From positions 53,132 through 117,131 of the forward strand of contig CAYSKO010000003.1 of NCBI GenBank assembly GCA_964431835.1: a DNA stretch of 64,000 nucleotides. Direction: 5' to 3'. Source of the DNA: an uncultured Planctomycetia bacterium. GTDB taxonomy: Bacteria; Omnitrophota; Gorgyraeia; 2-02-FULL-51-18. Under the pieces are notes generated by a model. The model was not told the origin of the DNA. It did no database searches and was given only the letters and a program-made list of their open reading frames with translations. Position numbers and translations under genes: made by a program. The first letter of the stretch is position 1, and each line of letters begins with the position of its first letter. Positions 10,708-57,610 of this stretch are shown piece by piece.

Positions 10708-11112
10708 TTAAGAGCGTTCGGTTTCGAGAAGGTCTTCGACTTGGCCGGGCGCCGCCGTTTCCGCGTGCCGGACGATGGCAGATCTTTCCGATTCGTTCAC
10801 ACGGCCCCGGAGCGTGACGCGGCCTCCGGCGGTGATGACCGCGGTATTTTTGGCGCCGAAAGAGATCGAGTCGTCCGCCATCAACGCCTTCCGGATCGTC
10901 TGGGTGATTCGGATATCGTCGGCGCTCTGCGACTGATCCTCAACCGTCGGCGCGTCGGGCATGTCGCCGGCGGGCGGCGCGACCGGTGAAGGCGTCGAAG
11001 AGACGGCAGCCGTTTCCGATGGGGGAGCGAGCGCGTCTTCCGCAAAAGCGGACGAGCAAATCGAAGCGGCCCCCACGAGAAGCGCGATACCGACAATCGA
11101 ACGAATGATCAT
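10708..11112 (-). CDS. BON-domain periplasmic protein (OsmY-like)
   Basis: ORF 10708..11388 trimmed to ATG 11112 (MIIRSIVGIALLVGAASICSSAFA signal peptide, GGAGG RBS). BON motif ITQTIRKALMADDSISFGAKNTAVITAGGRVTLRGRV. Confidence 0.7.
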   Translation of the reverse strand: MIIRSIVGIALLVGAASICSSAFAEDALAPPSETAAVSSTPSPVAPPAGDMPDAPTVEDQSQSADDIRITQTIRKALMADDSISFGAKNTAVITAGGRVTLRGRVNESERSAIVRHAETAAPGQVEDLLETERS

Positions 11113-24780: not shown

Positions 24781-26310
24781 CTATTGCGGCGCGGGGACGT
24801 CTAGGGGCTTCAGATTCCGCGTCGCTGGGCCGGTAAGGACCGAGCCGTCGCACCCGAACCGCGACCCGTGGCACGGGCAGTCGAAGCTTTTCTCCGCGCC
24901 GTTCCACTGGACGACGCATCCCAGATGCGTGCACGTGGCGGAGAACACGCTCAGTTCGCCCGTTTCGTCCCGGAAAGCCGCGGCTTTGCCCGGTCCGCGG
25001 CGGAAAATGCCGCCTTCGCCGGGAGCGAGGTCTTCGGGGGAGTCCAGATCCTCCTTTTTCACGCGGTCGGCGGCGAATTGGGTGACGACGTTGAGGTTTT
25101 CCTCGAGGAAGGTCATCGCCGAGCGGACGTTCTTGCGCGTCGGCTCGTAGATATCCGCCCACGCGTTCTTCTTTCCGGCGATCAGGTCCGCCAAAAGCAC
25201 CGCGGCGAGCGTGCCGTACGTCATTCCGTTTCCCGAATAGCCCGTGGCGATGTAGATGCTGTCGTGATAGGGACTGCGGCCGATGAAAGCCAACGAATCG
25301 ACGGGCTCGATCACCTGACCCGACCATCGGTACTCCGCTTCCCCGGCCATCGGGTAACGGGCGCGCGTCCATTCGTCCAATTCGAGGAACGGGCGCTCGT
25401 AATCGTCGTTCTGCCCCGTCTTGTGATCGCGGCCGCCGACGATCAGGTAATCGGAGGTGGGTTCCCGGTGCACGCGCACGTAGTTGTACGGGTCGTCCGT
25501 GTCCCACGCCAGCACATCCGGGACCGAGTCCTTCGGAACGCGGTACGCGGTGGCGTACGTGCGGTACGCGGATTCCTTCAGGAAGAAAAGGACGTTTTTG
25601 ATCGGTGAATGCGTTGCGACGACGACCCTGTTGGCCGTGATCTTGAATCCGCCACGCGTCTGCACGCCGTCCGGCTCGACCCGCTCGACGAACGTGTCGG
25701 TGAAGATCGTCCCCTTTTGCCGGACGATCGCCTTCACGAGACCTTCGAGATAGCGCATCGGATGGAACGCCGCCTGGCGCGGAACGCGCAGCGTCGGACC
25801 CGTTTCGAAGAAAGGGTAAGGCCCGCTCGGGAGAAGCTCCGCCTCGAAACCTGCAGACCGTGCGCCGACCAGCTCTTTCTCGAGAATCTTCGAACCGTCT
25901 TCCGGATGCAGGAAAAGGTAGCCGTCGACCCGGCGAAAATCGCAGTCGATTTTTTCCTCGGCAACGATGGATTCGATCCGGTCGATCGCCTCGCACTGGC
26001 TCGCGGCCACCGCGCGCGCCGTCTCGGCGCCGTGCATCTTTTGGATCTCCGCGTAGCCGAAATCCAGAAACGCCGAAATATGCGCCGTCGTGCGGCCTGT
26101 CTCGCCGGAGCCCACCGCGCCGGAGTCCACCAAGGCCACGCGGTACCCTTCCTTCGAGAGAAGGTACGCGAGCGTCGTTCCGGTGATGCCGGCCCCGACG
26201 ACCACCACGTCGACGTCGATGTCGCGGTCGAGCGTTTCGAATCGAAGCGAAGGCGCGGTGGCGGTCCAAAGCGGTTCGAGATTCCCCGGCGTGCGGTTGG
26301 AGCGGATCAT
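24781..26310 (-). CDS. FAD-dependent oxidoreductase (DAO family) fused to a C-terminal Rieske [2Fe-2S] domain
   Basis: ORF 24781..27102 trimmed to ATG 26310 (MIRSNRTPG…); the upstream part is Arg-rich and overlaps the real Gfo gene. Dinucleotide fold VVVVGAGITGTTLAYLL. Rieske motifs CTHLGC…CPCHGSRF at the C-terminus. Confidence 0.75.
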   Translation of the reverse strand: MIRSNRTPGNLEPLWTATAPSLRFETLDRDIDVDVVVVGAGITGTTLAYLLSKEGYRVALVDSGAVGSGETGRTTAHISAFLDFGYAEIQKMHGAETARAVAASQCEAIDRIESIVAEEKIDCDFRRVDGYLFLHPEDGSKILEKELVGARSAGFEAELLPSGPYPFFETGPTLRVPRQAAFHPMRYLEGLVKAIVRQKGTIFTDTFVERVEPDGVQTRGGFKITANRVVVATHSPIKNVLFFLKESAYRTYATAYRVPKDSVPDVLAWDTDDPYNYVRVHREPTSDYLIVGGRDHKTGQNDDYERPFLELDEWTRARYPMAGEAEYRWSGQVIEPVDSLAFIGRSPYHDSIYIATGYSGNGMTYGTLAAVLLADLIAGKKNAWADIYEPTRKNVRSAMTFLEENLNVVTQFAADRVKKEDLDSPEDLAPGEGGIFRRGPGKAAAFRDETGELSVFSATCTHLGCVVQWNGAEKSFDCPCHGSRFGCDGSVLTGPATRNLKPLDVPAPQ

Positions 26311-26321
26311 GGGACGGCCTC

Positions 26322-27467
26322 TTAAGTGACCGAAGGCGACTGCGCGTGCACGAGCGGCGGTTCGCGCTTCACCGGCGGACGGTCGATTTCCTGCGAAAGG
26401 TTCGGACGCTTGGCCCGGCTGAATTCCTCGAGCCGGACCGTCCGGCCGGTTTCCGCCGAGCGGTAGATCGCGCGGATAATGCGAACGTCGGCGAGGCCTT
26501 CGGCGCCCGAGGGTTCCGGATATTCCCCTTTTCGGATGCAATTCGAAAAATAGAGAAGCTCCGAAGCGAACTGGTCGTGCCGCTTGAACGTTTTTTTCAC
26601 GGTTTTTCCGCCGACGGTGAGCACGTGTCCCAGCTCCAGATCGTAACTGTACGCAGGTTCGACGCGCAACTTGCCCTTCGTACCGCAGATATCGTACGTC
26701 GAGAAGCCGGCGGCGCTGAAGCTGCACGTGAACGTCGCGATGCGGTCGCCGGGAAAGCGCAGGACCACGCCCGCCATCTCGTCGACCTCCCGGAAACGGG
26801 GATCGCCGGACGATTCGGTGAGCGCGGTCACCTCTAAAGGCTCCGCGCGGAAGACGTAACGCGCCGCGTTGATGCAGTAGACGCCGATGTCGTAGACGGT
26901 TCCGCCGCCGAGCGCCGCCTGCAGGCGGATGTCGCCCGGCTTCACGTTCATGGAGAACGCCGAATGGAAGAACCGGACCTCGCCGAGCCGGCCCGACCGG
27001 GCGATCTCGACGGCCTTCAGGTTCGCCTCCTCGAAATGGAGCCGATAGGCAACCATGAGGAAGACGCCGCTTTCGTCCGCGGCCTCGATCATGCTCCTGC
27101 ATTCCTCCTCGGTAACCGCCATCGGCTTCTCGCAGAGGACGTGAACGCCGGCACGCGCGGCACGCACTGCGTAATCGCAGTGCAGATTGTTCGGGAGCGC
27201 GATGTAGACCGCGTCGATCTTTCCGCTCCGCATCGCCTCGTCATACTCGTCGTACGAGTACGTCCGCACGCCGTAGCGGCGGCCGACCTTCTGGTTTTTG
27301 ACCGGATCGTCGGAGATAAGCGCGACGAGCTCCGAATTCTTGGAAGCGTGCTCGAACGCCGGAAGGACCGCCGCTTGGGCAATGTGGCCGATCCCCACCA
27401 CGGCGTAGCGGACGCGCCCGCTTCCTGCCTTGGCGCGGACTTTCGATTTGCGGGCGACGTCGATCAT
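26322..27467 (-). CDS. Gfo/Idh/MocA-family NAD(P)-dependent sugar oxidoreductase
   Basis: Rossmann N-domain VRYAVVGIGHIAQAAVLPAF…, EKP motif, and the Gfo/Idh/MocA C-domain. Confidence 0.8.
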   Translation of the reverse strand: MIDVARKSKVRAKAGSGRVRYAVVGIGHIAQAAVLPAFEHASKNSELVALISDDPVKNQKVGRRYGVRTYSYDEYDEAMRSGKIDAVYIALPNNLHCDYAVRAARAGVHVLCEKPMAVTEEECRSMIEAADESGVFLMVAYRLHFEEANLKAVEIARSGRLGEVRFFHSAFSMNVKPGDIRLQAALGGGTVYDIGVYCINAARYVFRAEPLEVTALTESSGDPRFREVDEMAGVVLRFPGDRIATFTCSFSAAGFSTYDICGTKGKLRVEPAYSYDLELGHVLTVGGKTVKKTFKRHDQFASELLYFSNCIRKGEYPEPSGAEGLADVRIIRAIYRSAETGRTVRLEEFSRAKRPNLSQEIDRPPVKREPPLVHAQSPSVT

Positions 27468-31912: not shown

Positions 31913-32211
31913 TCGGTCTTCACCATTATCTCGCGGTTTCGGCGCTCGTGTTCGCGATCGGCCTCGTCGGCCTTCTGACGCGCCGGAACATCCTCATGAT
32001 TCTCCTTTCGATCGAGCTGATCCTCAACTCCGCCAATCTTTCGTTCGTCGCTTTCTCCTCATACCGGGGCGATCTCTCCGGCCAAGTCGTCGTTTTTTTC
32101 GCGATGATCGTGGCGGCCGCCGAAGTGACCGTCGGCCTCGCGGTGGTGGTGCTCCTATATAGGAAGAAGGGCTCGATCAACGCCGACGACGCCGCGGAGT
32201 TGAAATGGTAG
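31909..32211 (+). CDS. nuoK: NADH-quinone oxidoreductase subunit K
   Basis: 100 aa, three TM helices, conserved Glu residues (…ELILNSANL…AAAEVTVGLA…). Start overlaps the nuoJ stop. Confidence 0.85.
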   Translation: MIGLHHYLAVSALVFAIGLVGLLTRRNILMILLSIELILNSANLSFVAFSSYRGDLSGQVVVFFAMIVAAAEVTVGLAVVVLLYRKKGSINADDAAELKW

Positions 32212-34157
32212 AAAACCTGCCCCCGCTGCCCTGGGTGATCCTCTTCGCGCCGCTTGTGGCGTGTGTCCTGATCGTTCTTTTCGCGCTGAAGCGTCCCGGG
32301 GCGGCCGCGGGAATCGCGCTGGCGGGCATCGTGATTCCCTTCATCGCGAGCGCCGCGCTCTGCTGGTTCAACACGGTCGAGATGCACTCGGCGGTGGCCA
32401 CGATCTCGTACGACTGGGTCAAGATTCCCGGTTTCAAGATCGGTTTCGGCTACCTGATCGATCAAATGACTCTCGTCATGCTCCTCGTCGTGACCGGGGT
32501 GGGAAGTTGCGTCTTCCTCTATTCGTCCTCCTACATGAAGGGCGACACGAGCTATCCCCGCTTTTTTGCCTCTCTTTCCCTCTTCGCTTTTTCCATGCTC
32601 GGGATCGTGCTCGCGGACAACTTCCTCATGCTCTTCATCTTCTGGGAGCTCGTGGCCGTCAGCTCGTATCTTCTCATCGGCTTCTGGTTCGAGAAGCCCT
32701 CGGCGGCCGACGCGGGCAACAAGGCGTTCATCGTCAATCGCGTCGCCGACTTCGGGATGGTTCTGGGTATCTTCATGGTTTGGATGCTCTCGGGGATGGG
32801 CGGCGCCGAGCGCACGTTCCAGTTCCAGGAGCTCGCGCACCGCATCCCCGCACTTCTCCACGCGGGCACGATCCCGCAGAGTCTCTTCGTGATCGCGGGG
32901 CTCCTCGTTTTCTGCGGTGTGGTCGGTAAGTCCGCGCAGTTCCCGCTCTACATCTGGCTTCCGGACGCGATGGAAGGCCCGACGCCGGTCTCCGCGCTCA
33001 TCCACGCGGCCACGATGGTCGCGGCGGGCGTTTACATGCTGGCGCGCGTTTTCTTCCTCGTCTCCGGCGTCGAAGCCGCGATGACGGCGATCGCGGTGAT
33101 CGGCGCGATCACCCTCGTCCTCGCCGCCGGCCTCGCACTCGTCCAGAACGACATCAAAAAGATCCTCGCCTACTCGACCGTGAGCCAGCTCGGCTACATG
33201 GTGCTCGCGCTCGGCCTGGGCGGTCGCACGGAAGCGATGTTCCACTTAACGACCCACGCCTTCTTCAAGGCGCTTCTCTTCCTCGGCGCGGGCTCGATGA
33301 TCCACGCGCTTCACACGCAGGATATCTGGGAGATGGGCGGGCTTCGGAAAGAGATGCCTATCACCTCCTGGACGTTCATCATTGGCACGCTCGCACTCTG
33401 CGGCATCGCGCCTCTTTCGGGCTTCTGGTCGAAGGACGAAATCCTTGTCCTGGCCAAGCGCGAAAATTGGGTCCTTTTCACGGTCGCCACCCTCGGCGCC
33501 GGGCTCACCGCCTTCTACATGACCCGCGCGGTCTGGGTCGCGGTGCTCGGCGAGCGAAAGAAGAAGGCGAAATCCCACGGCAAGAAAGCGCATGCCCACG
33601 ACGCGCACGACGCCGGGCACGACGGCCACGCGCACGAGTCGCCGCTTCCAATGACGCTTCCGCTCATTTTCCTCGCGGTCCTTTCCGTCACGGCCGGCTT
33701 TTTTGGCCTGCCGGCTTTCCTGAATTCCGCCGCGGAGCACGGCGCCCCCCACGGCGAAGCCGTGCATCACGGCATCGACTGGTTCGTCGCGGGTCTCTCG
33801 ACCGCGGTGGCCCTGGGCGGCATCGCACTCGGCACTTTGCTCTACAAAAACGCCAAACCCGGCCATGACCCGGTCGTGAAGGGTCTCGGCGGTCTCTATC
33901 ACCTCATCGTGAAAAAGTATTATTTGGACGACTTCTTTTCCGCGCTGGCCGGATTCGTCCAGAACGCGGTCGCGGGCGTTCTTTACCGCTTCGACGTGAA
34001 GGTCGTCATCGAACGCGGGGTAAACGGCACGGCCGCGCTCACCCGCTCGGCCGCCGACCGCGTGCGCCGTGCGCAAACCGGACGCGTCCGCACGTACGCC
34101 ACGGCGTTCGCGTTCGGGATCGTCGCGGCTGTCTATTTCATCCTGCTGAAAGGCTAG
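32205..34157 (+). CDS. nuoL: NADH-quinone oxidoreductase subunit L
   Basis: 650 aa antiporter-like subunit with a long C-terminal extension (horizontal helix region). Confidence 0.85.
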   Translation: MVENLPPLPWVILFAPLVACVLIVLFALKRPGAAAGIALAGIVIPFIASAALCWFNTVEMHSAVATISYDWVKIPGFKIGFGYLIDQMTLVMLLVVTGVGSCVFLYSSSYMKGDTSYPRFFASLSLFAFSMLGIVLADNFLMLFIFWELVAVSSYLLIGFWFEKPSAADAGNKAFIVNRVADFGMVLGIFMVWMLSGMGGAERTFQFQELAHRIPALLHAGTIPQSLFVIAGLLVFCGVVGKSAQFPLYIWLPDAMEGPTPVSALIHAATMVAAGVYMLARVFFLVSGVEAAMTAIAVIGAITLVLAAGLALVQNDIKKILAYSTVSQLGYMVLALGLGGRTEAMFHLTTHAFFKALLFLGAGSMIHALHTQDIWEMGGLRKEMPITSWTFIIGTLALCGIAPLSGFWSKDEILVLAKRENWVLFTVATLGAGLTAFYMTRAVWVAVLGERKKKAKSHGKKAHAHDAHDAGHDGHAHESPLPMTLPLIFLAVLSVTAGFFGLPAFLNSAAEHGAPHGEAVHHGIDWFVAGLSTAVALGGIALGTLLYKNAKPGHDPVVKGLGGLYHLIVKKYYLDDFFSALAGFVQNAVAGVLYRFDVKVVIERGVNGTAALTRSAADRVRRAQTGRVRTYATAFAFGIVAAVYFILLKG

Positions 34158-34161
34158 CCGA

Positions 34162-35679
34162 ATGCTCTCCCTCGGACCGATTTCCTGGATTCTCCTGTCG
34201 CCGGCCCTCGGCGGTCTGCTCGTTCTTTTGGTTCCTCAGAACCGCCCCGAGTGGATCAAACGGATTGGCGTGGCGGCGGTGTCCGTGTCACTCGCGGTGG
34301 CGCTTGCGACGTTCCTGCGCTACGACATCACGGCGGGCGGCTACCAGTTCGTCGACAAATTCGAATGGATCCCGAAACTCGGCATCTCCTACCACGTGGG
34401 CGCCGACGGCATCAACCTCACGCTACTTCTCATGACCGCCATCGTCTCGTTCGCCGGCATGCTCGTTACCTGCTCGGTCACCGAGCGCGTGAAGGAATAC
34501 GTGACGTTCTACCTCTTCCTCATCGCAGGCTGCTTCGGCGTGCTTTCCGCGCTCGACGTCTTCTTCATGTATTTCTTCTACGAGTGCGCGGTCGTTCCGG
34601 TGTTCCCGCTGATCGGCGTGTGGGGCTCAGGCAACAAGGAATACGCGACGATGAAGCTCACGCTCTACCTCACGCTCGGAGCGGTGCTCGCGCTTCTGGC
34701 CATCCTCGCGCTCTATTTTGCGACAGGGCTCAACACGTTCGACTTCCCCGCGATCGAGAGCGCGCTTCGGGCGAACCCGCTTCCGCTGGCGTTCCAGCGC
34801 TGGGCGTTCCCCTGTATCATGGTCGGCTTCGGCGTGATCCTCACGCTCTGGCCCTTCCACACGTGGTCTCCGATGGGTTACGCGGCGGCTCCCACGTCGG
34901 TCTCGATGCTGCACGCGGGCGTCTTGAAGAAACTCGGTGCGTATCTCATCATCCGCCTCGGAATCTCGCTCATGCCCGACGGCGCCGCACAGTGGATGCC
35001 CTACGTCGCGTGGCTCGCCGTCATGAACATCGTCTACTGCGGCCTCGTCGCCTTCACCCAGCGCGATCTGAAATACATCCTGGGCTATTCCAGCTGCAGT
35101 CACATGGGCTATATCCTTCTCGGCCTCGCGTGCCTCACGCCGGTTGCGCTGAACGGCACGGTCTTCTTCATGTTCGCGCACGGCATCATGGCCTCCCTTT
35201 CGTTCGCGCTCGTGGGCTGGATCTACGCACAGACGCACACGCGCATGCTCGACGAATGGGGCGGCCTCGGCAAGAAAATGCCGTTCATCTCCGTTCTCTT
35301 CGCGATGGCAGCGATGGCGTCGGCCGGTCTTCCCGGCTTCGCGAATTTCGTCGGTGAAATGACGATCCTGGCCGGCGCGTGGGACAAATACCGCTGGCCT
35401 GCGGTCTTCGCGGTGGCGGGCCTCGTGATCACGGCCGGCTACATGCTGCGGACGGTCCGCGGGGCGATCCAGGGGCCCCTTCCGGCCCGCTGGAACGCGC
35501 TCGAAGACGCGCGCACCCTGCGCGAGCGGGCTCCCTATCTTCTTCTGGCCGGCGTTCTTTTGGCCGTCGGCATGTTCCCGGCGCTCATCATGCCGGTCGT
35601 CGAGTCGGGCACGCGCCCGGTGCTCGACCGCACGATCCAAAGCGTGGAAGTCGTGGAAGGAAACGTGGCCCATGTTTAA
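34162..35679 (+). CDS. nuoM: NADH-quinone oxidoreductase subunit M
   Basis: 505 aa Mrp-antiporter-like subunit. Confidence 0.85.
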   Translation: MLSLGPISWILLSPALGGLLVLLVPQNRPEWIKRIGVAAVSVSLAVALATFLRYDITAGGYQFVDKFEWIPKLGISYHVGADGINLTLLLMTAIVSFAGMLVTCSVTERVKEYVTFYLFLIAGCFGVLSALDVFFMYFFYECAVVPVFPLIGVWGSGNKEYATMKLTLYLTLGAVLALLAILALYFATGLNTFDFPAIESALRANPLPLAFQRWAFPCIMVGFGVILTLWPFHTWSPMGYAAAPTSVSMLHAGVLKKLGAYLIIRLGISLMPDGAAQWMPYVAWLAVMNIVYCGLVAFTQRDLKYILGYSSCSHMGYILLGLACLTPVALNGTVFFMFAHGIMASLSFALVGWIYAQTHTRMLDEWGGLGKKMPFISVLFAMAAMASAGLPGFANFVGEMTILAGAWDKYRWPAVFAVAGLVITAGYMLRTVRGAIQGPLPARWNALEDARTLRERAPYLLLAGVLLAVGMFPALIMPVVESGTRPVLDRTIQSVEVVEGNVAHV

Positions 35680-37114
35680 CGCCTTCTCGGCCGTCTGCCA
35701 GGTTTTCCGCACTGAGATCGGCGTCGTGGTCCTGGCGCTCGGCTGCCTTATTTTCGACATCCTCCTTCCCGACACCGAAAAGCGCGCGAAGACCCTGGCC
35801 TCGATCGCGATGATCGGCGTGGCGCTTCTTTTCGGGCAGCTCTGCTTCCAATGGGGAAATTTCGGCGCCGCGTTCGGAGGCTCGCTCGTCCAGGACGGCA
35901 TCTCCTTCTACTTCAAGCTGATCTTCCTCCTAGCCGCGTTCTTCACACTCTTCATGGCGCGCGAGTACCAGTCGAAGCTCAAGCGCGGGCGCGAGGAATT
36001 CGTCCTCCTCATCCTTTTCGCGCTGGTCGGCACGATCTTTCTCGCCTCGGCGAACGATTTCCTTCTCTTTTTCATCGCACTCGAGACGCTGACGGTGTCT
36101 CTCTACGTGATGACGGCCTATCTGCGCGACCGCGAGTCGTCGATCGAGGCGGGCGTGAAATACATCGTCCTGGGCGCTCTCTCGACGGCCGTCTTCCTTT
36201 ACGGCCTGAGCTTCCTCTACGGCGCCTCGGGTACCACGTCCTTTACCGAAATGGGCGTTCGCATCGCGGCGATGCCCTCGGTGCCCGTTTCGTTCCTCTT
36301 CGGCATGGTGCTCGTCGTTTCTTCGCTCGGATTCAAGATCGCCGCGGTGCCGTTCCACCTTTGGGCGCCGGACGTGTACCAGGGCGCGCCGACGCCGGTC
36401 ACGGCTTATCTCGCGATCGGCTCCAAAGCCGCGGGTTTCGCGGGCCTCGTTCGCCTCTCCATGACGGCATTCGCGCCCGCGCAGGAATCGCTTTCCGCTC
36501 TCTTCGCGGTCCTCGCCGCCCTCACGATCCTCTACGGCAACCTCGGTGCGATCCCCCAGACCAACGTGAAGCGCCTCATGGGTTATTCGAGTATCGGCCA
36601 CGCGGGCTATCTCCTCATCGGCCTCGCGGCCTTCTCCGCGGGCGGCGGAGAATCGCTCCTTTATTACCTCATGGCGTATCTCTTCAGCACCGGCGGCGTC
36701 TTCTTGGCGATCGTTGCGCTTTCCCAGACCGCCAAAGCCGACGAGGTGGCCGATTTCGCGGGCCTTTCGCGCCGTTCGCCGCTCCTGGCCGCGGGGATCA
36801 TGCTCGGCCTCCTGTCGCTGGCCGGCGTGCCACCGTTCGCGGGTTTCTTCGCAAAGTTCTATCTGCTTTGGACCGGCGTGAAAGCAGGCCTCCTCTGGCT
36901 CGTCGCGATCGGCGTCTTGAACGTCGTGACGTCGCTTTTCTACTACTTGAAGATCGTAAAAGCCATGTACGTCGACGCACCGGCGGACACGAACCCCATC
37001 CGCCTTTCGCCCGACCAAAAGATCATCCAATATCTCTGCATCGCGGGCATTGTGGTCCTGGGTATTTGGCAGGGCCCGCTGGTCCGGCTCGTCGAAGCCG
37101 CTTTCGGCCGCTAA
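35672..37114 (+). CDS. nuoN: NADH-quinone oxidoreductase subunit N
   Basis: 480 aa Mrp-antiporter-like subunit. Start overlaps the nuoM stop. Confidence 0.85.
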   Translation: MFNAFSAVCQVFRTEIGVVVLALGCLIFDILLPDTEKRAKTLASIAMIGVALLFGQLCFQWGNFGAAFGGSLVQDGISFYFKLIFLLAAFFTLFMAREYQSKLKRGREEFVLLILFALVGTIFLASANDFLLFFIALETLTVSLYVMTAYLRDRESSIEAGVKYIVLGALSTAVFLYGLSFLYGASGTTSFTEMGVRIAAMPSVPVSFLFGMVLVVSSLGFKIAAVPFHLWAPDVYQGAPTPVTAYLAIGSKAAGFAGLVRLSMTAFAPAQESLSALFAVLAALTILYGNLGAIPQTNVKRLMGYSSIGHAGYLLIGLAAFSAGGGESLLYYLMAYLFSTGGVFLAIVALSQTAKADEVADFAGLSRRSPLLAAGIMLGLLSLAGVPPFAGFFAKFYLLWTGVKAGLLWLVAIGVLNVVTSLFYYLKIVKAMYVDAPADTNPIRLSPDQKIIQYLCIAGIVVLGIWQGPLVRLVEAAFGR

Positions 37115-37130
37115 AAGCCCTCTAAACACG

Positions 37131-37176
37131 AAAAAACCGCCCGCACCGGGGTTCCCGGTGCGGGCGGCTCTTTTTT
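37131..37176. terminator. bidirectional Rho-independent terminator (nuoN plus-strand / treT operon minus-strand)
   Basis: AAAAAACCGCCCGCACCGGGGTTCCCGGTGCGGGCGGCTCTTTTTT: a 13-bp GC stem flanked by an A-run and a T-run. Confidence 0.8.
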
Positions 37177-37186
37177 CGGAAAGACT

Positions 37187-38422
37187 TTAAGAGAGGCTGA
37201 CGCGGTCTCCTTCGTGGAAGAGCGAGAGGAAAAGCAGCATGTAATCGCGCAGGTGCCTCGTGAGGAGGAAGTTCTGCCGCACGTGCTCGCGGCCGTTCTC
37301 CCCCAGCTTTTGGGCGAAGGCGGGTTCCTGAAGGAGCTGTTTCAGCCAGTAAGCGGTTCCCTCGATCGAATGCGTGAGAATCCCCGAGTGCTTGTGCGTG
37401 ATCTGGAGCGGAATGCCTCCGACCGCGCTCGCGATGACCGGCTTTCCCTTCCACAAGGCCTCGGTGATCGTAAGCCCGAAACCCTCCTTCAGCGATTTTT
37501 GGAGGATCACCGTCGACACCCGCTGGATCGCGTTAATTTCGAGATGGCTCGTCTGCGGCAAAAGCATGATGAGGATGTCGGGATTGTTCCCGACCTCATT
37601 CTTCACCTCGGCCAGCACCTCGGCGCCTTCGGGATCGTCGGCCGCCGTGCCCCCCACGAGGAGGAGACGCGCGTCGACGTAATCCTGAACCTGCTTGAAC
37701 GCGCGCACCACGCCCACGGGATCCTTCAGCCGGTCGAAACGCGAAACCTGCGTCACGAGCGGCTTGTCGAGGGGGATGCCGAGGCGACTGATGATCGCGT
37801 CGATCTCCTCCTGCGGCAAATCGCGGTTCTTCTCCGCGAGCGGGTCGATGGACGGCGAGATGAGGGCCTGCGGAATCGAGAGGCTTTGCGCGAAGATCGG
37901 GGCCGAGAAAACCGAGCTGTCGTAGGACTCGATGAACTGCTTTAAGAACGACCAGAGCCCGGGATCGGGGTTCGAGACGTCCACATGGCAGCGCCAGACC
38001 CATTTGTTACCCATTTTCTTTTTCCTCTGGACAAGCCCCGCGGGCTGGAGATCGTGCACGAAGATGATGTCTTCGTCGAGCGGCATGGCGGCGAGATTTT
38101 CCTCCTGCACCGCCATGAACGTGTCGTAATCGCGTAGCTCGAAGTGCTGGGGCGTTCCGTGAAGCGCGTTGTGCATTTTTTTCGTGACGGCGTAGAAGGC
38201 CTCCCCGCCCTTGATTACGTCCCACTTGGCGTCGACGCCGAGTTCCTGAAAGAGCGGAATCATGCGGTTCAGGATCTCCGCCACGCCGCCGCCGACGGCG
38301 GTCGAATTGATATTGAGTATCCGTTTCCCCTGGAGCTGCCGCGCGAGAAGCCGGATCTCGTCCATCACCTGCTTGCCTACGATCGGCTCGTAATCGCTTA
38401 AGGTCGGTTTAAGCCGTGACAT
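37187..38422 (-). CDS. treT: trehalose synthase, glycosyl-transferring (TreT, GT4)
   Basis: Strong resemblance to archaeal/bacterial TreT: DYEPIVGKQ…INSTAVGGGVAEIL, WRCHVDVS, SPSIDPLAEKN, VTQVSRFD, DDPEG, KEGFGLTITEALWKGKPVI. Confidence 0.8.
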   Translation of the reverse strand: MSRLKPTLSDYEPIVGKQVMDEIRLLARQLQGKRILNINSTAVGGGVAEILNRMIPLFQELGVDAKWDVIKGGEAFYAVTKKMHNALHGTPQHFELRDYDTFMAVQEENLAAMPLDEDIIFVHDLQPAGLVQRKKKMGNKWVWRCHVDVSNPDPGLWSFLKQFIESYDSSVFSAPIFAQSLSIPQALISPSIDPLAEKNRDLPQEEIDAIISRLGIPLDKPLVTQVSRFDRLKDPVGVVRAFKQVQDYVDARLLLVGGTAADDPEGAEVLAEVKNEVGNNPDILIMLLPQTSHLEINAIQRVSTVILQKSLKEGFGLTITEALWKGKPVIASAVGGIPLQITHKHSGILTHSIEGTAYWLKQLLQEPAFAQKLGENGREHVRQNFLLTRHLRDYMLLFLSLFHEGDRVSLS

Positions 38423-39083
38423 GGGTGGCCTCCTCCTTGAGACGCTTCTCGACGAGGAGGAGGATACGCTGGCGCAGGCCCTCCATCGTCTGGGTATAGG
38501 GGTCGAGCTTGTCGATCTGTCGGGCGAGTTCGTGCTCGCCGTTGTGGTTCAGCCAGTCCGAGAAATCGTTCACGCCGAGGGGTTGGCGCAGGCGCCCAGT
38601 GAAGATGTGGTAATAGAGCGAGCTGATCGTCACCTTCCGCAGGCAGTCCCGGAATTCTGCGAGGTTGCGCGCCACGAGCTCCGTCGGCAGGTCGAAGAGG
38701 ATCGATTTCATGAAATGAAACTCTTCTCCGGGCGGGCACTCGCGCACGGTAGGATTCTCGTGCAGGAACCGGTCGATGGCGCCCGCGATCGCGGTCCGCA
38801 GGTCTTCGAGCGAATCGAAGCGCACGGTGTCGATCGCGGCCAAGCGCTCGCCCATCCTGTCTTCCTGAAGAACGTTCGTCGTCCAGAATGCAAAATCGTT
38901 CGGCGGCTCCGGGGTCAGGAACTGGTGCTGCTGCAGGAAATGGTGCGTGTGGTAGTACACCGACGATTCGGGCACCACCGAGAGATGGTCCCGCAGCTCC
39001 CGCAGGTTCTTCGCCTTGAGCCCCGTCAGCATGACGAGACTGAGCTGGGTCTTGAAATAGAAGGGTTTTTCCGCCTTTAACAT
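38409..39083 (-). CDS. hypothetical protein co-transcribed between otsB and treT
   Basis: ORF 38409..39515 trimmed to ATG 39083 (MLKAEKPFYFKTQLSLVMLTGLKAKNLRELRDHLSV…); the upstream part is Arg-rich and overlaps otsB. 224 aa, no recognised motif. Overlaps the treT start by 14 nt. Confidence 0.5.
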   Translation of the reverse strand: MLKAEKPFYFKTQLSLVMLTGLKAKNLRELRDHLSVVPESSVYYHTHHFLQQHQFLTPEPPNDFAFWTTNVLQEDRMGERLAAIDTVRFDSLEDLRTAIAGAIDRFLHENPTVRECPPGEEFHFMKSILFDLPTELVARNLAEFRDCLRKVTISSLYYHIFTGRLRQPLGVNDFSDWLNHNGEHELARQIDKLDPYTQTMEGLRQRILLLVEKRLKEEATHVTA

Positions 39084-39847
39084 TGGCTGAGTTCCTCCAA
39101 AAATTTGTCGACCTCTTTTTGGGAATCGAGGTAATACTGTGCGTGCGATTTCCGCGAGCGGCCGACGCGGATCGTGAGTCCGAAGCGTCCCATAGCCTTG
39201 AACATGTCCTCGTCCGTGCGGTCGTCGCCGATGACGATCGGCAGCGAGCCGGGATACTTCTTCAAAAGATGCACCGCGGCGAATCCCTTGTGCCAGCGGA
39301 TCTTCGGAAACACTTCCCAGACCTTCTTGCCTTTGCGCCACGCAAGCGGATGCTTGGCGTAATGTTTTTTGAAGAACTCCACCATCTGCCCGAACGCGGG
39401 TGTGTGCTCCTTGGGTAGATTCCGGAAGTGGAGGCTGATCGTGAGTCCCTTGTCCTCGATCAGGATGCCCGGGAGGTAATAGAAATCGGCGTTCAGCTTC
39501 TCGACCAGGAGCCACATCGTGAACCTGAGGCGACGCGCCTTCTTCGCTTCCAATGGAAGGGCGAGCCCTTCCATTTCGAGCCCGTGGTTCCCGACGTAGA
39601 CGACATTCTTCAGGTCAAAATACGTCCGCAGGTTCTTCAAGCTCCGGCCGCTGATGATCGACACACGAAAACCAGGTTTTTTCACGAGCTGACGGAGAAG
39701 CCGCTTCGTGCTGTCGCAGAAACTCACTTCGTCGGGCGTGGGGGCGATCGAAACGAGCGTCCCGTCGAAATCCAACATCAAGAGCTTCTTCTTGTTTGAA
39801 AGAAGCCTCTTTTTGATCGCCGGCCAGTCCCGCCAAAGTAAACGCAT
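39077..39847 (-). CDS. otsB: trehalose-6-phosphate phosphatase (HAD-IIB)
   Basis: HAD motif I LLMLDFDGTL and motif IV GDDRTDEDMF. OtsB-like length. Confidence 0.8.
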   Translation of the reverse strand: MRLLWRDWPAIKKRLLSNKKKLLMLDFDGTLVSIAPTPDEVSFCDSTKRLLRQLVKKPGFRVSIISGRSLKNLRTYFDLKNVVYVGNHGLEMEGLALPLEAKKARRLRFTMWLLVEKLNADFYYLPGILIEDKGLTISLHFRNLPKEHTPAFGQMVEFFKKHYAKHPLAWRKGKKVWEVFPKIRWHKGFAAVHLLKKYPGSLPIVIGDDRTDEDMFKAMGRFGLTIRVGRSRKSHAQYYLDSQKEVDKFLEELSQC

Positions 39848-39849
39848 GG

Positions 39850-42120
39850 CTAAAGGATGCGGACGTTGACCGCTTGCGTAGGGTGAAGATCGAGGCGCAC
39901 GCCCGCCAGCTCGTGGATGAGGTCGGCTGCCCAGCGGTACACGTTACGGTCCTTGAGAAGCGCGCGCATGCGGCGCATCCGCTCTTCCTGCTCGTGGGGC
40001 CGCATGAGAAGCGCGGTGCGGATCGCCTCGGCCGTCTGCGCCGTGTCGTAAGGATTCACGATCACGGCGTCGCTCAGCTCCCGGGCCGCCCCAGTGAACT
40101 GGCTCAAGATGAGGACGCCCCGCTCGTCCTGCCGTGCCATCACGAATTCCTTGGCCACGAGATTCATGCCGTCGTGGAGCGACGTCACCATGCAGACGTC
40201 GGCTCCGGCATAGAACGGGGCGATGTCTTTCTGGCTGTGATGTTTCTTGAGAAGCAGGATCGCCTTCCAATTCTTCGCCTTGAAGCGGGCGTTGATGCGT
40301 TCAGCCTCCCGCTCGACCTCGTACACGAATTCCTGGTACTTCTGAATGAGCGACCGGCTCGGCGCCCCGAGCTCGACGAACGTGAAGCGGCCCTGGTATT
40401 CGGGGTTCTTTTCGAGGAAGTGTTCCACCGCACGGAAGCGCTCAAGGATGCCCTTTGTGTAATCAAGCCGGTCGACGCCGACTCCGACGAAGTCCGCCGT
40501 GATTCCGTAGGGCTTAAGGAGCTCCGTTTTCGAGACCGGCGCCGTCGCCGGGCTTTCGCCGCCGGAAAACGCGATGCTAATCGGGAACGGCTTGATCCAG
40601 GTCGTGTGTCCTTCCCGGTTGACGTTGAAATGCTCGTAATCGATGCGGCACTCGAGGATCCGGTCCACCGTTTGCACGAAGTTGTTGCAGTGGTACTGCG
40701 TGTGGAAGCCGATGAGGTCGGCGCCGAGCATGCCGTCCAAGACTTCCTGCTGCCACGGGCAAATGCTGAACGATTCCGGGTTCGGCCAAGGGATATGCCA
40801 GAAAATGGCCACGCGCGCGTCGGGGCGCTCGGCTTTGATGAGCCGCGGCAGAAGCGCGAAGTGGTAGTCCTGGATGAGCACGCAGGGCTCGGACGTGCCC
40901 TCGAGCTCCTGGAGAAGCGCCTTTGCGAATTTCTTGTTCACCGCTTCGTACGCCTGCCAGTCCGTTTCGCGGAACGTGGGACGCGTGTGGGCGACGTGGC
41001 AAAGAGGCCAGAGCCCCTCGTTCGAAAATCCGTAATAGTAGCCGGCCTCTTCTTCTTTGGTGAGCCAGACGCGGCGGAGGGTGTACTGCGGCTCCTCGGG
41101 CGGCACGCGCAAGCGGTCCGACTCGTCTACGGTCTCGCGGTCGGCGTCGCCGTTGCCCTCGGCGATCCAGGTACCGCCGCACGCCTTGAGAACGGGCTCG
41201 AGCGCGGTCACGAGTCCGCTCGCGGGGACGACGCACTCGATTTCCTTGCCCTTCTTCACGTGCTGGTAGGGCTCGCGGTTCGAGACAACGAAGAGCGGGC
41301 GGCCCTGGAGCTTCAAGCGGACGAATTCCTTTAAACGTTCCGGCGTCCAGAGTGACTCCGACGACTGGCGCAGACGCGCTTCTTCCTCAGCCGCCTCGCG
41401 GGCTTGGACGAGACTGATGGCGAGCTTCGAGATTTCCTTGGCGATTGGACCCAAGAGGCGCTCTTCGGCCGGCGAAAGCTGGTCTGGCTTCGCCTCGCCC
41501 ATGCGGACTTTCTTGATCCAGTCGGCGGTCTTGCGTATCGGACGCATCACGTTGAGATAAAAAACGCCGAGAGTCGTCGCGGAGACGAGCACCCAGATAA
41601 CCGCGATGCGGAGCAGGTTCATGAGCCAGATGCGGCGCAGGCGCTCGTGGATGAAGCCCGCTTTGTGAAAGACGGTGACGGCGTATTCGCCGGCGCCGGT
41701 TAGGACCGGCGTGGAGTAGGCGTGGATATCCCGCTCGCCGAGACGCATGAAATCGCCGGCCGGACGCCCCTGGCGGACGGCGGTCTGAACGACGTCCCGC
41801 ACCGCTTTGGGCGATTCGGCCGCGCCGAACACGCCCGAGGACCCGGCCACGAGGCGACCGTCCTTGTCGTGCACGCAGAGCCCGAGAAGATCCTCGCGGT
41901 TCGAAAATTCGTCGGCGATGGGCGCCAGTTTCTCGAGGTGCCCTTCGGCGAGCGCCGGACGGACGGCTTCACGGAAGCTGTCGGCCAAAAGCCCGGCGTT
42001 TCGTTCGAGCTCCGACTTGAGCCGCGCTTTTTCGGTCCGGACCTGCCAGAGCGAAGAAACGATGAAGAGCGCAGCGAGAACCAGGAGCAAAGTTACGATA
42101 AGTTTTAAAGTAGCCCGCAC
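39850..42120 (-). CDS. otsA: trehalose-6-phosphate synthase (GT20 OtsA) fused to an N-terminal ~270-aa two-TM periplasmic sensor module with a HAMP-like linker
   Basis: TM1 [21 protein letters not shown], a ~150-aa extracytoplasmic segment, TM2 [28 protein letters not shown], and a linker. The GT20 core starts near [31 protein letters not shown], with GFFLHIPFP-equivalent FWHIPWP and the C-terminal catalytic region. Confidence 0.75.
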
Positions 42121-42152: not shown

Positions 42153-43256
42153 TTAACGCGCGTTACGAGGTTCGGTCAGCGCGTCGTGAATCTGTACGGT
42201 CGTTTCCTTGGAGATCGAGAACGTCCGCGTCGGGTAAGGGATCGTAATCCCCTCTTTGCGGAAGCGTTCGTGAACGGCCTTGATGAACTCGTGTTTGATG
42301 AGGTATTGGTCGGTGAATTCTTTGCCCTGCATGATCACGCTAAAGCCGATTCCCGAGTCGCAAAACGAGTGGAAGCGGATGAACGGCTCGAAATCGGCCA
42401 CCCCTCCCGGCGTCGCCTTCATGATCTCCCGGGCCACGGCGGTGACGACCCGCTCGACTTTCGGCAGATCGCTTTCGTAGTGCACGGACACCTCAACGAG
42501 CACCGCGATCAGCTTCGTGGGGGCGTAATAGTTCGTGATCACGCTCGAGACGAGCTTCGCGTTCGGGATCACGATCATGTTGTTCGAAGGCTCGCGGATG
42601 CGGGTGCTGCGCCATCCAACGTCGGTGACGTACCCTTGCTGCCCGGCTTCCAGCTTCACGAAGTCGCCGATCGCGACCGGCTTGTCGATCGTGACGTAAA
42701 TGCCCGCGAAAAAATTAGAAAGAGTGTCTTGGAGCGCGAGTGCCACCGCCAGCGAACCGATACCCAGCGAGGCGAGGATCGGCGTGATCGATATCCCCAT
42801 GAGGTCGAGGAAAATCAGCGCGCCGAGGCCAATGATGAACCCGCGGACAAGGCCCTTCGCGACCCCCTGAGAGACGCTTCCGAACACGGGGGTCGAATGC
42901 CGAGTCATGTACCCGCGCACGAGCCGATCGAGGAAGAGGACGACCGCCAAAACCACGGCTCCCTGAAGCGCGATCCGCGCGAGCTGGCTCGCCTTTTCCG
43001 GAAGCGGCAGGAGCTCCATGAGGAGGGCCATGCCCGACGCGAGAATGATGAGGTTGAGCGGAAACGACAGGGCGTCGATCAGGATGTCGTCCCAGACCGC
43101 CGTGGTGCGCGAGGCCCAAACTTTGAACCGCCGGAACAGGATCTTCTTGAAAAGCCATAGTATCAGGAGCCAAGCGACGACGACGGCAGGCGCGAAAAGA
43201 TAAGCGGGCAGAACCTGATTCAGGGAATAAAACCAGCTGGAGGGCTGGGACGGCAT
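42153..43256 (-). CDS. mechanosensitive ion channel protein, MscS family
   Basis: TM helices followed by the MscS beta-domain pattern (…GDFVKLEAGQQGYVTDVGWRSTRIREPSNNMIVIPNAKL…). Confidence 0.8.
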   Translation of the reverse strand: MPSQPSSWFYSLNQVLPAYLFAPAVVVAWLLILWLFKKILFRRFKVWASRTTAVWDDILIDALSFPLNLIILASGMALLMELLPLPEKASQLARIALQGAVVLAVVLFLDRLVRGYMTRHSTPVFGSVSQGVAKGLVRGFIIGLGALIFLDLMGISITPILASLGIGSLAVALALQDTLSNFFAGIYVTIDKPVAIGDFVKLEAGQQGYVTDVGWRSTRIREPSNNMIVIPNAKLVSSVITNYYAPTKLIAVLVEVSVHYESDLPKVERVVTAVAREIMKATPGGVADFEPFIRFHSFCDSGIGFSVIMQGKEFTDQYLIKHEFIKAVHERFRKEGITIPYPTRTFSISKETTVQIHDALTEPRNAR

Positions 43257-43340
43257 CGGCTACCTTTCGGGATGACTTAAGTAGCCCTATTATATCAATT
43301 TCCGACTGTCTTTTCCCTATAAAAGGGGCCAGGTAGGATA

Positions 43341-43376
43341 AAAAGGCGGGGAGGGGTCTCCCCCTCCCCGCCAGAC
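43341..43376 (-). terminator. Rho-independent terminator after glnK
   Basis: GGCGGGAGGGGG-tct-CCCCCTCCCCGCC, a 12-13-bp G/C stem. A T-run follows on the minus strand (A-run 43341-45 on the plus strand). Confidence 0.75.
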
Positions 43377-43388
43377 TTCTTTTCTCGC

Positions 43389-43730
43389 TTAACCGATGGC
43401 GACGTTTTGCGTCTCGCCGGTCCGGATACGCACGCACTGGGCCAGGTCGACGACGAAGATCTTGCCGTCGCCGATGTTGCCGGTGCGGGCGCCCGCGGTG
43501 ATCGCCTCGACGGCGTGCTTCACGAACTCCTCGTTGACCGCCACTTCGATCTTCACCTTCCGGAGCAGGCTCCCCGCTTCCTTGTGACTGCGGTAAACCT
43601 CCGAGATGCCCTTCTGGCGGCCGCGTCCCATGACTTCGGTCACGGTGACGAGGTGGATCTGCTTTTCTTCCAGCCGGTCGAGCGTCTCGTCGAGCCGGTC
43701 GGGCTGGATGATCGCGATGATATATTTCAT
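43389..43730 (-). CDS. glnK: nitrogen regulatory protein P-II
   Basis: 112-aa PII fold with the T-loop RGRQKG…Y region. Directly downstream of amtB. Confidence 0.85.
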   Translation of the reverse strand: MKYIIAIIQPDRLDETLDRLEEKQIHLVTVTEVMGRGRQKGISEVYRSHKEAGSLLRKVKIEVAVNEEFVKHAVEAITAGARTGNIGDGKIFVVDLAQCVRIRTGETQNVAIG

Positions 43731-43741
43731 TATTTTTCTCC

Positions 43742-45082
43742 TTAGTCCAGGGTCGTGTAAGCGGCTTCGCGGTGCTGCGTCAAATCGAGGCCGATCCGCT
43801 CTTCCTGCTCGGTGACGCGCAGGCCGCAGATCAAGTCCACGACCTTAAGCAGGATGAACGTGACGACCGCCGAATAGACGACCGTAATGAGGACCGCCTT
43901 GAGCTGGATAAACAAAAGGCCCGGGTTGCCGTAAAACAGCCCGTCCGCGCCGGCGGAATTGACCGTCTTGTTCGCCCAGAGACCGGTTGCGATGGCTCCC
44001 CAGATGCCGCCGACGCCGTGCACGCCGAACACGTCGAGCGAATCGTCGTAGCCCATCTTCACCTTCACAACCGCGACGAAGAAGTAGCAGATCAGCGACA
44101 CGCCGATGCCGATCCAGATCGCGTCGATCGGGGTGACAAAACCGGCCGCGGGAGTGATCGCGACGAGGCCCGCGACGACGCCCGTGATCATGCCGAGCAT
44201 CGTGGGGTGCGCGTTGATCTTCCAGTCGAGGAGCGCCCACGTGAGGCCCGCCGCGGCGGCCGCGACGTGCGTGACGAGGAACGCGTTGACGGCCAGGCCG
44301 TTGGCTCCGAGCGCGGAACCGCCGTTGAACCCGATCCAGCCGAACCAGAGAAGACCCGCTCCGAGGACGGCGTAAGGAAGGTTGTGCGGGGGCGACATCT
44401 TCTTCGGGAAACCGGTGCGCTTGCCGAGAACCAGCGAGCAAACGAGCGCCGCGATGCCGGCGTTGATGTGGACGACCGTTCCGCCCGCGAAGTCGAGAGC
44501 GCCCATGGTGCGGATGAAACCGCCGACGGCCCAGACCCAGTGGCAGATCGGGTCATAAACGAGCGTCGCCCAGAGGACGATGAACACGCAGTAAGCGGCG
44601 AATTTCATTCGCTCGGCGAACGCGCCCAGGATCAGGGCGGGCGTGATGACCGCGAACATGCACTGGAACAGCATGAAGAGCGTGTGGGGGATGGTCGCAG
44701 CGTAGTCCGCGTTCGGCTCGGCACCCACGCCGGCCAGAGCGAGGAAGTTCAGACCGCCGATCAGGCCTTTCACGTCGGTTCCGAACGAGAGTGTGTAACC
44801 GATGAGGATCCACTGGATGGTGATGATGCACGCGGCCATGAAGCACTGCATGAGCACCGATAGGAAGTTCTTCTTGCGGACCAGACCACCGTAGAAGAAC
44901 GCCAGCGCGGGCGTCATGAGGAGAACTAGGGCGGAGCTGACGATGATCCAGGCGGTGTCGCCGGTATCGATCGTGGGCGCTGCCGCTTCTTCCGCAAACG
45001 CGATGGCCGGCACAAGCGCCGTTCCGGCCAGGACGAACAGGGCCGTGAACAGCCCTTTAAACCCTCTCCATGCGTCTTTCAT
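43742..45082 (-). CDS. amtB: ammonium transporter
   Basis: Signal peptide plus 11 TM helices. Amt signature DFAGGTVVHINAG. Confidence 0.85.
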   Translation of the reverse strand: MKDAWRGFKGLFTALFVLAGTALVPAIAFAEEAAAPTIDTGDTAWIIVSSALVLLMTPALAFFYGGLVRKKNFLSVLMQCFMAACIITIQWILIGYTLSFGTDVKGLIGGLNFLALAGVGAEPNADYAATIPHTLFMLFQCMFAVITPALILGAFAERMKFAAYCVFIVLWATLVYDPICHWVWAVGGFIRTMGALDFAGGTVVHINAGIAALVCSLVLGKRTGFPKKMSPPHNLPYAVLGAGLLWFGWIGFNGGSALGANGLAVNAFLVTHVAAAAAGLTWALLDWKINAHPTMLGMITGVVAGLVAITPAAGFVTPIDAIWIGIGVSLICYFFVAVVKVKMGYDDSLDVFGVHGVGGIWGAIATGLWANKTVNSAGADGLFYGNPGLLFIQLKAVLITVVYSAVVTFILLKVVDLICGLRVTEQEERIGLDLTQHREAAYTTLD

Positions 45083-57499: not shown

Positions 57500-57610
57500 G
57501 ATAGCGCTGGAGGAATTAGAGAACGGTTAGATTGGGATTAAAAGTTTCTAAGCTCTTAAGGGGCTATCGAGAAAACGGATTAGAGCGGGATTAGATTATT
57601 TTAAGGATTT
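57500..57610 (-). promoter_or_regulatory. copy E of the AT-rich stress element plus three extra GGATTAGA(T) direct repeats
   Basis: GATAGCGCTGGAGGAATTAGAGAACGGTTAGATTGGGATTAAAAGTTTCTAAG…ACGGATTAGAGCGGGATTAGATTATTTTAAGGATTTT. The histidine-kinase stop (TAA 57601-03) lies inside the element. TATCCT-like -10 sits 34 nt before the TTG start at 57462. Confidence 0.45.

Follow-up and report, generated by a model that had tools for sequence, protein, structure and literature searches.

Two described systems are precedents for the one discussed here. In Thermoproteus tenax, the msc-gt-tpsp operon comes with a fill-and-jettison model, according to which the stressed cell makes trehalose that leaves via a mechanosensitive channel (MSC); the synthase of trehalose-6-phosphate (TPS) and the phosphatase of the same compound (TPP) are fused there into a single protein, TPSP, which is activated by the binding of a PimA-like glycosyltransferase of family GT4 (PMC3634074). 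In Synechocystis, the compatible-solute synthase GgpS, a member of family GT20, is activated post-translationally by salt; the enzyme is soluble, and ions release it from inhibitory binding to nucleic acids (PMC6753628). Here, we analysed a 64,000-nucleotide (nt) stretch of DNA from an uncultured bacterium of the Omnitrophota (assembly GCA_964431835.1, contig CAYSKO010000003.1, positions 53,132 to 117,131 of the forward strand), which we call the window. It contains a gene for a GT20 protein of the OtsA type that is preceded, in the same polypeptide, by a two-helix membrane sensor module and a HAMP domain; we refer to this protein as sensor-OtsA. Its architecture is conserved, its catalytic motifs are intact and its gene neighbourhood recurs in other genomes. 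We consider it rather probable that sensor-OtsA is a dimeric receptor-enzyme that gates the synthesis of trehalose-6-phosphate post-translationally in response to an envelope or osmotic cue.

Each half of this protein has well-known relatives. Canonical OtsA/TPS enzymes (E. coli 1gz5, M. thermoresistibile 5jij and fungal Tps1 5huv) share with sensor-OtsA the GT20 fold, its motifs and an adjoining OtsB. Unlike these soluble proteins, sensor-OtsA carries a membrane sensor of 275 amino acids (aa) with HAMP and linker, including a family-specific helix (residues 260-271) ahead of strand beta-1, and it has five invariant cysteines that mycobacterial OtsA lacks; GgpS likewise has neither membrane sensor nor HAMP. 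HAMP-coupled signalling enzymes, such as class III adenylyl cyclases, GGDEF/EAL proteins and PP2C phosphatases, resemble sensor-OtsA in combining an extracytoplasmic sensor, a second transmembrane helix (TM2), HAMP, a signalling helix and a catalytic domain in one polypeptide. Their outputs, however, are second messengers or protein phosphorylation and mostly depend on dimers, whereas the output of sensor-OtsA is a primary metabolic enzyme with its active site in one chain. The sensor-HAMP-enzyme design and OtsA are thus each familiar, but a HAMP domain driving a metabolic glycosyltransferase of the GT-B fold appears to be undescribed, and our full-text literature searches found no description of an OtsA/TPS of this architecture, fused to a Cache or HAMP domain. 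The parts of the gene, from the whole open reading frame (ORF) to its 3' end, are as follows.

39850..42120, minus strand: sensor-OtsA ORF, 756 aa, GTG start codon with GGGAG about 5 nt upstream
42046..42108, minus strand: first transmembrane helix (TM1), about residues 5-25 (Kyte-Doolittle peak 1-29; part of AlphaFold2 helix 2-59)
41626..42045, minus strand: periplasmic sensor domain of predicted PDC/sCache fold, residues 26-165
41551..41625, minus strand: TM2, about residues 166-190 (Kyte-Doolittle peak 161-192; inside AlphaFold2 helix 155-206)
41401..41550, minus strand: divergent HAMP, residues 191-240 (helix AS1 191-206, connector 207-216, helix AS2 about 217-240)
41296..41400, minus strand: near-invariant linker, residues 241-275 (polar Ala/Glu/Arg helix, W258-T-P260 break, amphipathic helix 260-271)
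39850..41295, minus strand: GT20/OtsA catalytic domain, residues 276-756 plus the stop codon (PF00982, TIGR02400 and OtsA structures of the Protein Data Bank, PDB)

An earlier note on this DNA had placed the gene at 39850-42120, with an extension of about 270 aa; an ORF on the minus strand has exactly these coordinates, and the extension amounts to 275 residues ahead of GT20. Two hydrophobic segments are found in the window protein (residues 1-29 and 161-192; Kyte-Doolittle, 19-residue window), and exactly two, at the same positions, in all 41 full-length homologues examined. Between them lies an alpha/beta domain of about 140 aa. Both transmembrane helices of the earlier note therefore stand, while its periplasmic segment of about 150 aa proved slightly too long. 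In an AlphaFold2 model of residues 1-288 (predicted local distance difference test, pLDDT, 84.8), TM1 extends as a long periplasmic helix and leads into a five-stranded alpha/beta domain; an unbroken helix (155-206) then forms TM2 and runs into HAMP helix AS1, followed by a loop and a second long helix. The modelled domain between the membrane helices, a long N-terminal helix with a five-stranded antiparallel sheet flanked by helices, has the PDC fold.

Residues 1-276 of the window protein have no match to Pfam or NCBIfam even at E<=10, nor do the periplasmic and HAMP parts when scanned separately. As this part of the window protein alone gave no domain match, we scanned 54 orthologues individually and used profile and fold searches. 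The best Foldseek match is full-length WalK (YycG), over 259 columns (E 4.8e-10), and covers the whole module from TM1 through the sensor and TM2 to HAMP; a profile of the 54 orthologous modules also matches the WalK extracellular domain (E 2.7e-4). The two proteins would thus share their input, TM1, an extracellular PAS/sCache domain, TM2 and HAMP, at a sequence identity of only about 12-16%, but differ in output, which is a set of PAS-DHp-CA kinase domains in WalK and a GT-B glycosyltransferase (GT20) in sensor-OtsA. Because the output is GT20 and not a kinase, sensor-OtsA would act without phosphorelay or response regulator. The extracellular domain of WalK is modulated by YycH/YycI. Among Pfam families, the best match for the TM1-periplasmic-TM2 part is SMP_2 (PF10144, YtjB-AhpA, 'membrane protein affecting hemolysin expression'), which was matched in 29 of the 54 orthologues (best E 4.9e-6) and by which the window protein itself is not matched. 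Source databases list SMP_2 for three homologues (P0227, P0266 and P0280), and JGI gives the hemolysin-expression name to a fragment (P0008). SMP_2 proteins stand alone, with two transmembrane helices and no enzymatic output. Weak matches to the Cache clan were also seen in the orthologues (CHASE8 in 9/54, sCache_4 in 9/54, dCache_3 in 7/54, sCache_3_2 in 7/54 and dCache_1 in 3/54), and some of those scanned singly matched LapD_MoxY_N. Nothing in these searches identified the region as a known membrane anchor devoid of sensing, the outcome that the earlier note had named as counting against its proposal.

Conservation is unevenly spread over the sensor domain. Helix alpha1, the junction F72-x-x-R75-E76-x-L78-x-G80 and the C-terminal helix are conserved, and the most variable region is beta2-loop-alpha3-beta3/4 (entropy 2.3-3.0 bits, with indels); a conserved Cache ligand pocket was not found. 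Since the pocket region is the most variable part and carries indels, a ligand common to the whole family seems improbable. The pattern in the alignment fits a physical cue, a protein partner or lineage-specific ligands.

The segment after TM2 is predicted to fold as helix, connector and helix (helix 155-206, loop 207-216, AS2 from 217 or 224), and P194, W201, G208 and E229 are invariant in the 54 orthologues. Three of these residues occupy HAMP landmark positions, with Pro194 at the start of AS1, Gly208 at the start of the connector and Glu229 at the start of AS2, and both helices show heptad a/d spacing of hydrophobic residues (191/195/202/205 and 223/226/230/233/237). The Pfam HAMP model (PF00672) was matched in 19 of the 54 orthologues, in every case below threshold (best E 8e-5); one homologue (P0024) scores 19.7 bits against a cutoff of 25. 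In a profile search of the family's HAMP segment against the PDB, the best match is the Af1503 HAMP, aligned end to end at marginal E-values of 0.07-0.8. Landmarks, heptads, fold and the Af1503 match bear out the HAMP-like linker that the earlier note had recognised after TM2. Because the matches are sub-threshold and the E-values marginal, we describe this HAMP as divergent and, by the Pfam threshold, as no formal member of the family.

Beyond HAMP, the linker follows the pattern EEARLR...W-T-P-ERLKE, with E247, A248, R251, W258, T259 and L263 invariant. Residues 240-257 contain few strong hydrophobics and are dominated by Ala, Glu and Arg, a composition that points to a helix of polar, metastable character and not to a stable coiled coil. 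An amphipathic helix (260-271) follows the W258-T259-P260 break and leads to GT20 strand beta-1. Modelled with the N-terminal part only, the block 261-270 has a mean pLDDT of 73, and in the model of the whole protein it reaches 87; this gain once GT20 is present suggests that the helix packs on the catalytic domain. Mean pairwise identity increases along the chain, from 41% in the sensor and 44-49% in the transmembrane helices to 52% in HAMP, 67% in the linker and 70% in GT20. Read from the alignment, this gradient is the pattern of a signalling protein, in which the relay is as constrained as the output.

The catalytic half is a complete GT20 domain. PF00982 matches residues 277-739 (E 4e-117; 392 bits against a cutoff of 32.5; profile positions 4-472 of 473). 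The OtsA model TIGR02400 scores 425.7 bits, short of its equivalog cutoff of 564.85, and is still the best single-function model; the GgpS model TIGR02398 also matches, at 300 bits. Solved trehalose-6-phosphate synthases align from end to end (5jij, 1e-73; 5huv, 1e-71; E. coli 1gz5, 5e-63). All the substrate-binding motifs are there, among them SNR(282), GGL, YYxGFSNxxLWP and DGMNLVAKE, and they do not vary among 41 homologues. The invariant SNR(282)EP loop lies directly after beta-1, and its Arg is the counterpart of the glucose-6-phosphate-binding Arg9 of E. coli OtsA, in which donor and acceptor are bound by Arg9, Gly22, Tyr76, Trp85, Asp130, His154, Arg262, Lys267, Arg300, Asp361 and Glu369. 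Because the binding motifs are kept and the OtsA models rank first, the GT20 enzyme is very probably active. Five cysteines of the domain (C314, C374, C454, C478 and C643) are invariant in 41 family members, and the aligned M. thermoresistibile OtsA has other residues at these positions. A redox or metal site peculiar to the fused proteins might be built from them.

How widespread is this fusion? Besides the window's own protein (P0173), a full-length search brought up more than 120 fusions, about 750 aa long and 57-70% identical, from metagenome-assembled genomes (MAGs) of Omnitrophota, Eisenbacteria, Kiritimatiellia and Nitrospirota; a Candidatus Eisenbacteria MAG encodes the closest homologue (70%). 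Their names, where given, go no further than "trehalose-6-phosphate synthase". When one genome per species was scanned, relatives turned up at 136 loci, and Elusimicrobiota, Verrucomicrobiota, Acidobacteriota, Ignavibacteriota, Melainabacteria and others joined the list of carriers. The carriers, all metagenome-assembled, thus comprise at least 136 species-level genomes of about ten phyla. Eighty loci were retrieved, in 73 of which module and GT20 form a single ORF; the synteny counts below refer to these 73. Fusions uncut by a contig edge are nearly all 733-761 aa long. Two public-database homologues are longer. One (P0285, 894 aa) has an added low-molecular-weight phosphotyrosine phosphatase domain (PF01451), and the other (P0024, 913 aa) is extended at its N-terminus by about 155 residues, where the sensor profile has a second matching stretch.

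At E<=1e-3, a profile of sensor and HAMP matched 3,482 cluster representatives; 914 remain at <=1e-10 and 205 at <=1e-30, and the family spans at least 205 clusters at 50% identity. Output domains were checked with hidden Markov models in the 149 representatives newly returned among the best 150 of the 3,482. In 49 of them the chain goes on into linker and GT20; 92 are metagenomic fragments that break off early, and the remaining 8 end in frameshift junk or in the first part of the same linker. None of the 49 that were long enough carries another output domain, and among these best 150 the sensor module is, as far as the sequences tell, a dedicated fusion to GT20. A query with the 275 N-terminal residues had returned 23 fragments of at most 464 aa and missed the identical full-length protein, which the 756-aa query found (P0173). 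Domain-only queries hence under-report multidomain homologues, because the word-indexed search appears to favour matches of the query's own length.

In the window, sensor-OtsA is the second gene of a five-gene unit on the minus strand that consists of MscS, sensor-OtsA, OtsB, an OrfY homologue (DUF5752) and TreT, with gaps or overlaps of 32, 2, -4 and -14 nt. The other elements of the unit and its borders are listed here.

42153..43256, minus strand: MscS-family mechanosensitive channel, first gene (PF00924, PF21088, PF21082), with a 32-nt gap to the OtsA start
39077..39847, minus strand: OtsB, trehalose-6-phosphate phosphatase (PF02358, E 5e-35; TIGR00685, 131 bits against a cutoff of 68), after a 2-nt gap
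38409..39080, minus strand: OrfY homologue, DUF5752 (PF19027, E 7e-68; PDB 4cso, E 4.8e-20), with a 4-nt overlap with the OtsB stop
37187..38422, minus strand: TreT, trehalose glycosyltransferring synthase (PF21269, E 5e-52; PDB 6zj4, E 8e-120; 2x6q, E 3e-96)
43289..43297, minus strand: candidate promoter, a perfect extended -10 element (TG-a-TATAAT) 33 nt upstream of the MscS ATG
43345..43372, minus strand: strong intrinsic terminator of the upstream amtB-glnB unit (12-bp stem with 11 GC pairs, then TTTTTAT)
37137..37167, both strands: bidirectional terminator hairpin after TreT (minus) and nuoN (plus) (14-bp stem with 13 GC, T-runs on both strands)

No -35 hexamer could be recognised at the -10 element upstream of MscS, and a consensus promoter scan is therefore silent there. 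Close spacing, together with the promoter and terminators that bound the unit, confirms the co-operonic MscS, OtsB, conserved hypothetical protein and TreT of the earlier note. Its conserved hypothetical protein, whose start (MLKAEK) overlaps the OtsB stop, can now be named as a homologue of T. tenax OrfY (PDB 4cso, annotated as a transcription factor). DUF5752 had no mention in the literature searched, nor did OrfY together with TreT and Thermoproteus, and a role of OrfY/DUF5752 in trehalose metabolism appears to be uncharacterised. The likeness to the T. tenax operon is considerable, as a mechanosensitive channel, TPS and TPP, a GT4-family enzyme and OrfY or its homologue are genetically linked in both; in the window, MscS, TPS/TPP and the GT4-family enzyme share one strand with gaps of at most 32 nt. 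A fused TPSP with a PimA-like GT4 of the T. tenax type is, however, absent from the window. TPS and TPP each have a gene of their own here, the GT4 is by its matches a true TreT, and the TPS brings its own transmembrane sensor.

The neighbourhood is partly conserved elsewhere. OtsB lies in the flanks of 60 of the 73 loci, nearly always directly downstream of the fusion, and OrfY occurs in 35/73 and TreT in 36/73, with OrfY placed between OtsB and TreT in about 35 loci of various phyla; the order sensor-OtsA, OtsB, OrfY, TreT alone is found in 28/73. MscS adjoins the fusion in 12/73 loci, lying upstream of OtsA in some and between OtsA and OtsB in others. The latter position is seen in a group of Omnitrophota and 'Planctomycetales' MAGs (L001, L002, L007, L011, L012, L013, L017, L019 and L020), and the position directly upstream of sensor-OtsA in the window, a Nitrospirae MAG and two other loci (L054, L070, L080). 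This difference in position between lineages suggests that MscS was recruited to the cluster repeatedly or with rearrangement.

How would such a protein work? We picture sensor-OtsA as an inner-membrane one-component receptor-enzyme, probably homodimeric, in which a cytoplasmic N-terminus, TM1, the periplasmic PDC/sCache domain, TM2, HAMP, a polar signalling helix with the Trp-Thr-Pro break, a short docking helix and a cytoplasmic, catalytically intact GT20 domain would follow one another. TM2 and HAMP would pass on an extracellular or membrane cue as they do in WalK-type kinases; from there the signal would travel along the invariant linker to beta-1, which the linker meets about ten residues ahead of the SNR loop. 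The relay could then set the position or closure of the GT-B N-lobe, or the binding of the acceptor, and in this way raise or lower the rate of trehalose-6-phosphate synthesis with no need for fresh transcription. OtsB would convert the product to trehalose, TreT would offer a second route, and the co-transcribed MscS would release solutes on osmotic downshift, the whole unit forming a self-contained fill-and-release osmoprotection module. The cue itself is the least certain step; most plausibly it is osmotic or envelope stress. The trehalose pathway, the MscS linkage and the precedents of T. tenax and GgpS (PMC6753628) are the reasons for the osmotic reading. We would put it at even chances that sensor-OtsA constitutes a new output class for HAMP-type transmembrane receptors, that is, the direct gating of a primary metabolic glycosyltransferase, and with MscS a fill-and-release module.

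Several observations weigh against a dimeric receptor-enzyme of this kind. The GT-B active site lies within one chain, so that control by a dimeric HAMP is not obvious, and our structure models are all monomers. The region that forms the ligand pocket in Cache domains of the CitA/DcuS type is here the most variable part and carries indels. The HAMP assignment is equally exposed, as the window protein has no Pfam HAMP match even at E<=10, the orthologues match only below threshold and the PDB profile E-values are only 0.07-0.8. Finally, MscS linkage is limited to some lineages (12/73 loci).

Alternatively, the module may be only a membrane tether or scaffold, with a periplasmic domain that holds no regulatory information, and may serve to place OtsA near MscS, OtsB/TreT or a transporter, or to hold an OtsA dimer together. 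In favour of this, the canonical Cache ligand pocket is not conserved, MscS is encoded beside the fusion in some lineages, and what controls the trehalose synthase activity of T. tenax is not a sensor but a complex with a partner protein (PMC3634074). However, a tether needs neither a folded PDC domain nor a HAMP; across about ten phyla, P194, G208 and E229 as well as the linker are either invariant or no less conserved than GT20; and the module as a whole matches the input of a bona fide sensor kinase. We therefore regard a mere tether as unlikely.

Receptors of the LapD type, which carry degenerate, catalytically dead cytoplasmic domains, offer a further model, in which the signal would run inside-out and GT20 would report UDP-glucose, glucose-6-phosphate or trehalose-6-phosphate through HAMP to the periplasmic domain, which would then bind or release a periplasmic partner. 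In sensor-OtsA the substrate-binding motifs of GT20 are all intact and invariant, and it is because the enzyme is not degenerate that we disfavour this model. Moreover, OtsB follows in 60/73 loci, as expected of a working biosynthetic enzyme, the match to LapD is far weaker than that to the WalK type, and no conserved periplasmic partner gene was seen in the loci. Signalling in this direction seems quite improbable.

A still smaller chance falls to the idea that the GT20 domain makes another sugar phosphate, such as glucosylglycerol phosphate, and that the protein is not an OtsA. Scores under the NCBIfam equivalog cutoffs and the match to the GgpS model TIGR02398 would agree with it, but OtsA models score highest, the best solved homologues are all trehalose-6-phosphate synthases, an OtsB above its own equivalog cutoff begins 2 nt downstream and TreT lies in the same operon. 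That the extension is an artefact, produced by an internal start or by two genes joined through a sequencing error, might be suspected from the GTG in place of ATG as start codon, but is already effectively refuted by the comparative data: 73 independent loci have the same single ORF, a homologue ATG aligns with residue 1 of the window protein in about 70 of them, the N-terminal region is kept at the protein level across phyla (41-52% identity), and the true start after TM2 that would have refuted the earlier note is ruled against by the absence of any Met between residue 207 and GT20 in the window protein.

The rest of the window adds some context to the operon. About 25 kb away, a gene for malto-oligosyltrehalose trehalohydrolase, TreZ (13175-15055, minus strand; TIGR02402, 610 bits against a cutoff of 539), adjoins one for an archaeal-type glycogen debranching enzyme (11112-13175, minus strand; TIGR01561, 408 bits against a cutoff of 364). 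The two would be part of a third, glycogen-derived trehalose route besides the OtsA/OtsB/TreT operon; no TreY was seen beside TreZ. Directly upstream of the operon lie amtB and glnB (P-II; 43389-45082, minus strand), and at its other end the nuoL/M/N complex I genes (32205-37114, plus strand) converge on the shared terminator. Further off are a gene for a fused FAD oxidoreductase (DAO) and Rieske protein (24784-27102, minus strand) and one for a cytoplasmic multi-sensor histidine kinase of 1,179 aa (57604-61140, minus strand), with an unusual N-terminal CheR_N followed by about four PAS domains, GAF, HisKA and HATPase. Rfam models found no riboswitch or other RNA family in the whole window. 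Many long ORFs overlap genes on the opposite strand, and given the GC content of 62% we consider them artefacts.

For only a few enzymes, GgpS among them, is it known how bacteria adjust the production of compatible solutes in the seconds that follow an osmotic or envelope insult. If our reading of sensor-OtsA is true, it would provide a direct path from the cell surface to metabolic flux that is independent of transcription, and it would add a GT-B glycosyltransferase to the kinases, cyclases, chemoreceptors and phosphatases that HAMP domains are known to control. This raises the mechanistic question of how a dimeric four-helix relay could act on an active site that lies within one chain. The fusion family is large, yet confined to poorly studied and mostly uncultured lineages. 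For these bacteria, our reading would mean that a self-contained osmotic module is widespread in uncultured phyla, among them Omnitrophota, Elusimicrobiota, Nitrospirota, Verrucomicrobiota and others.

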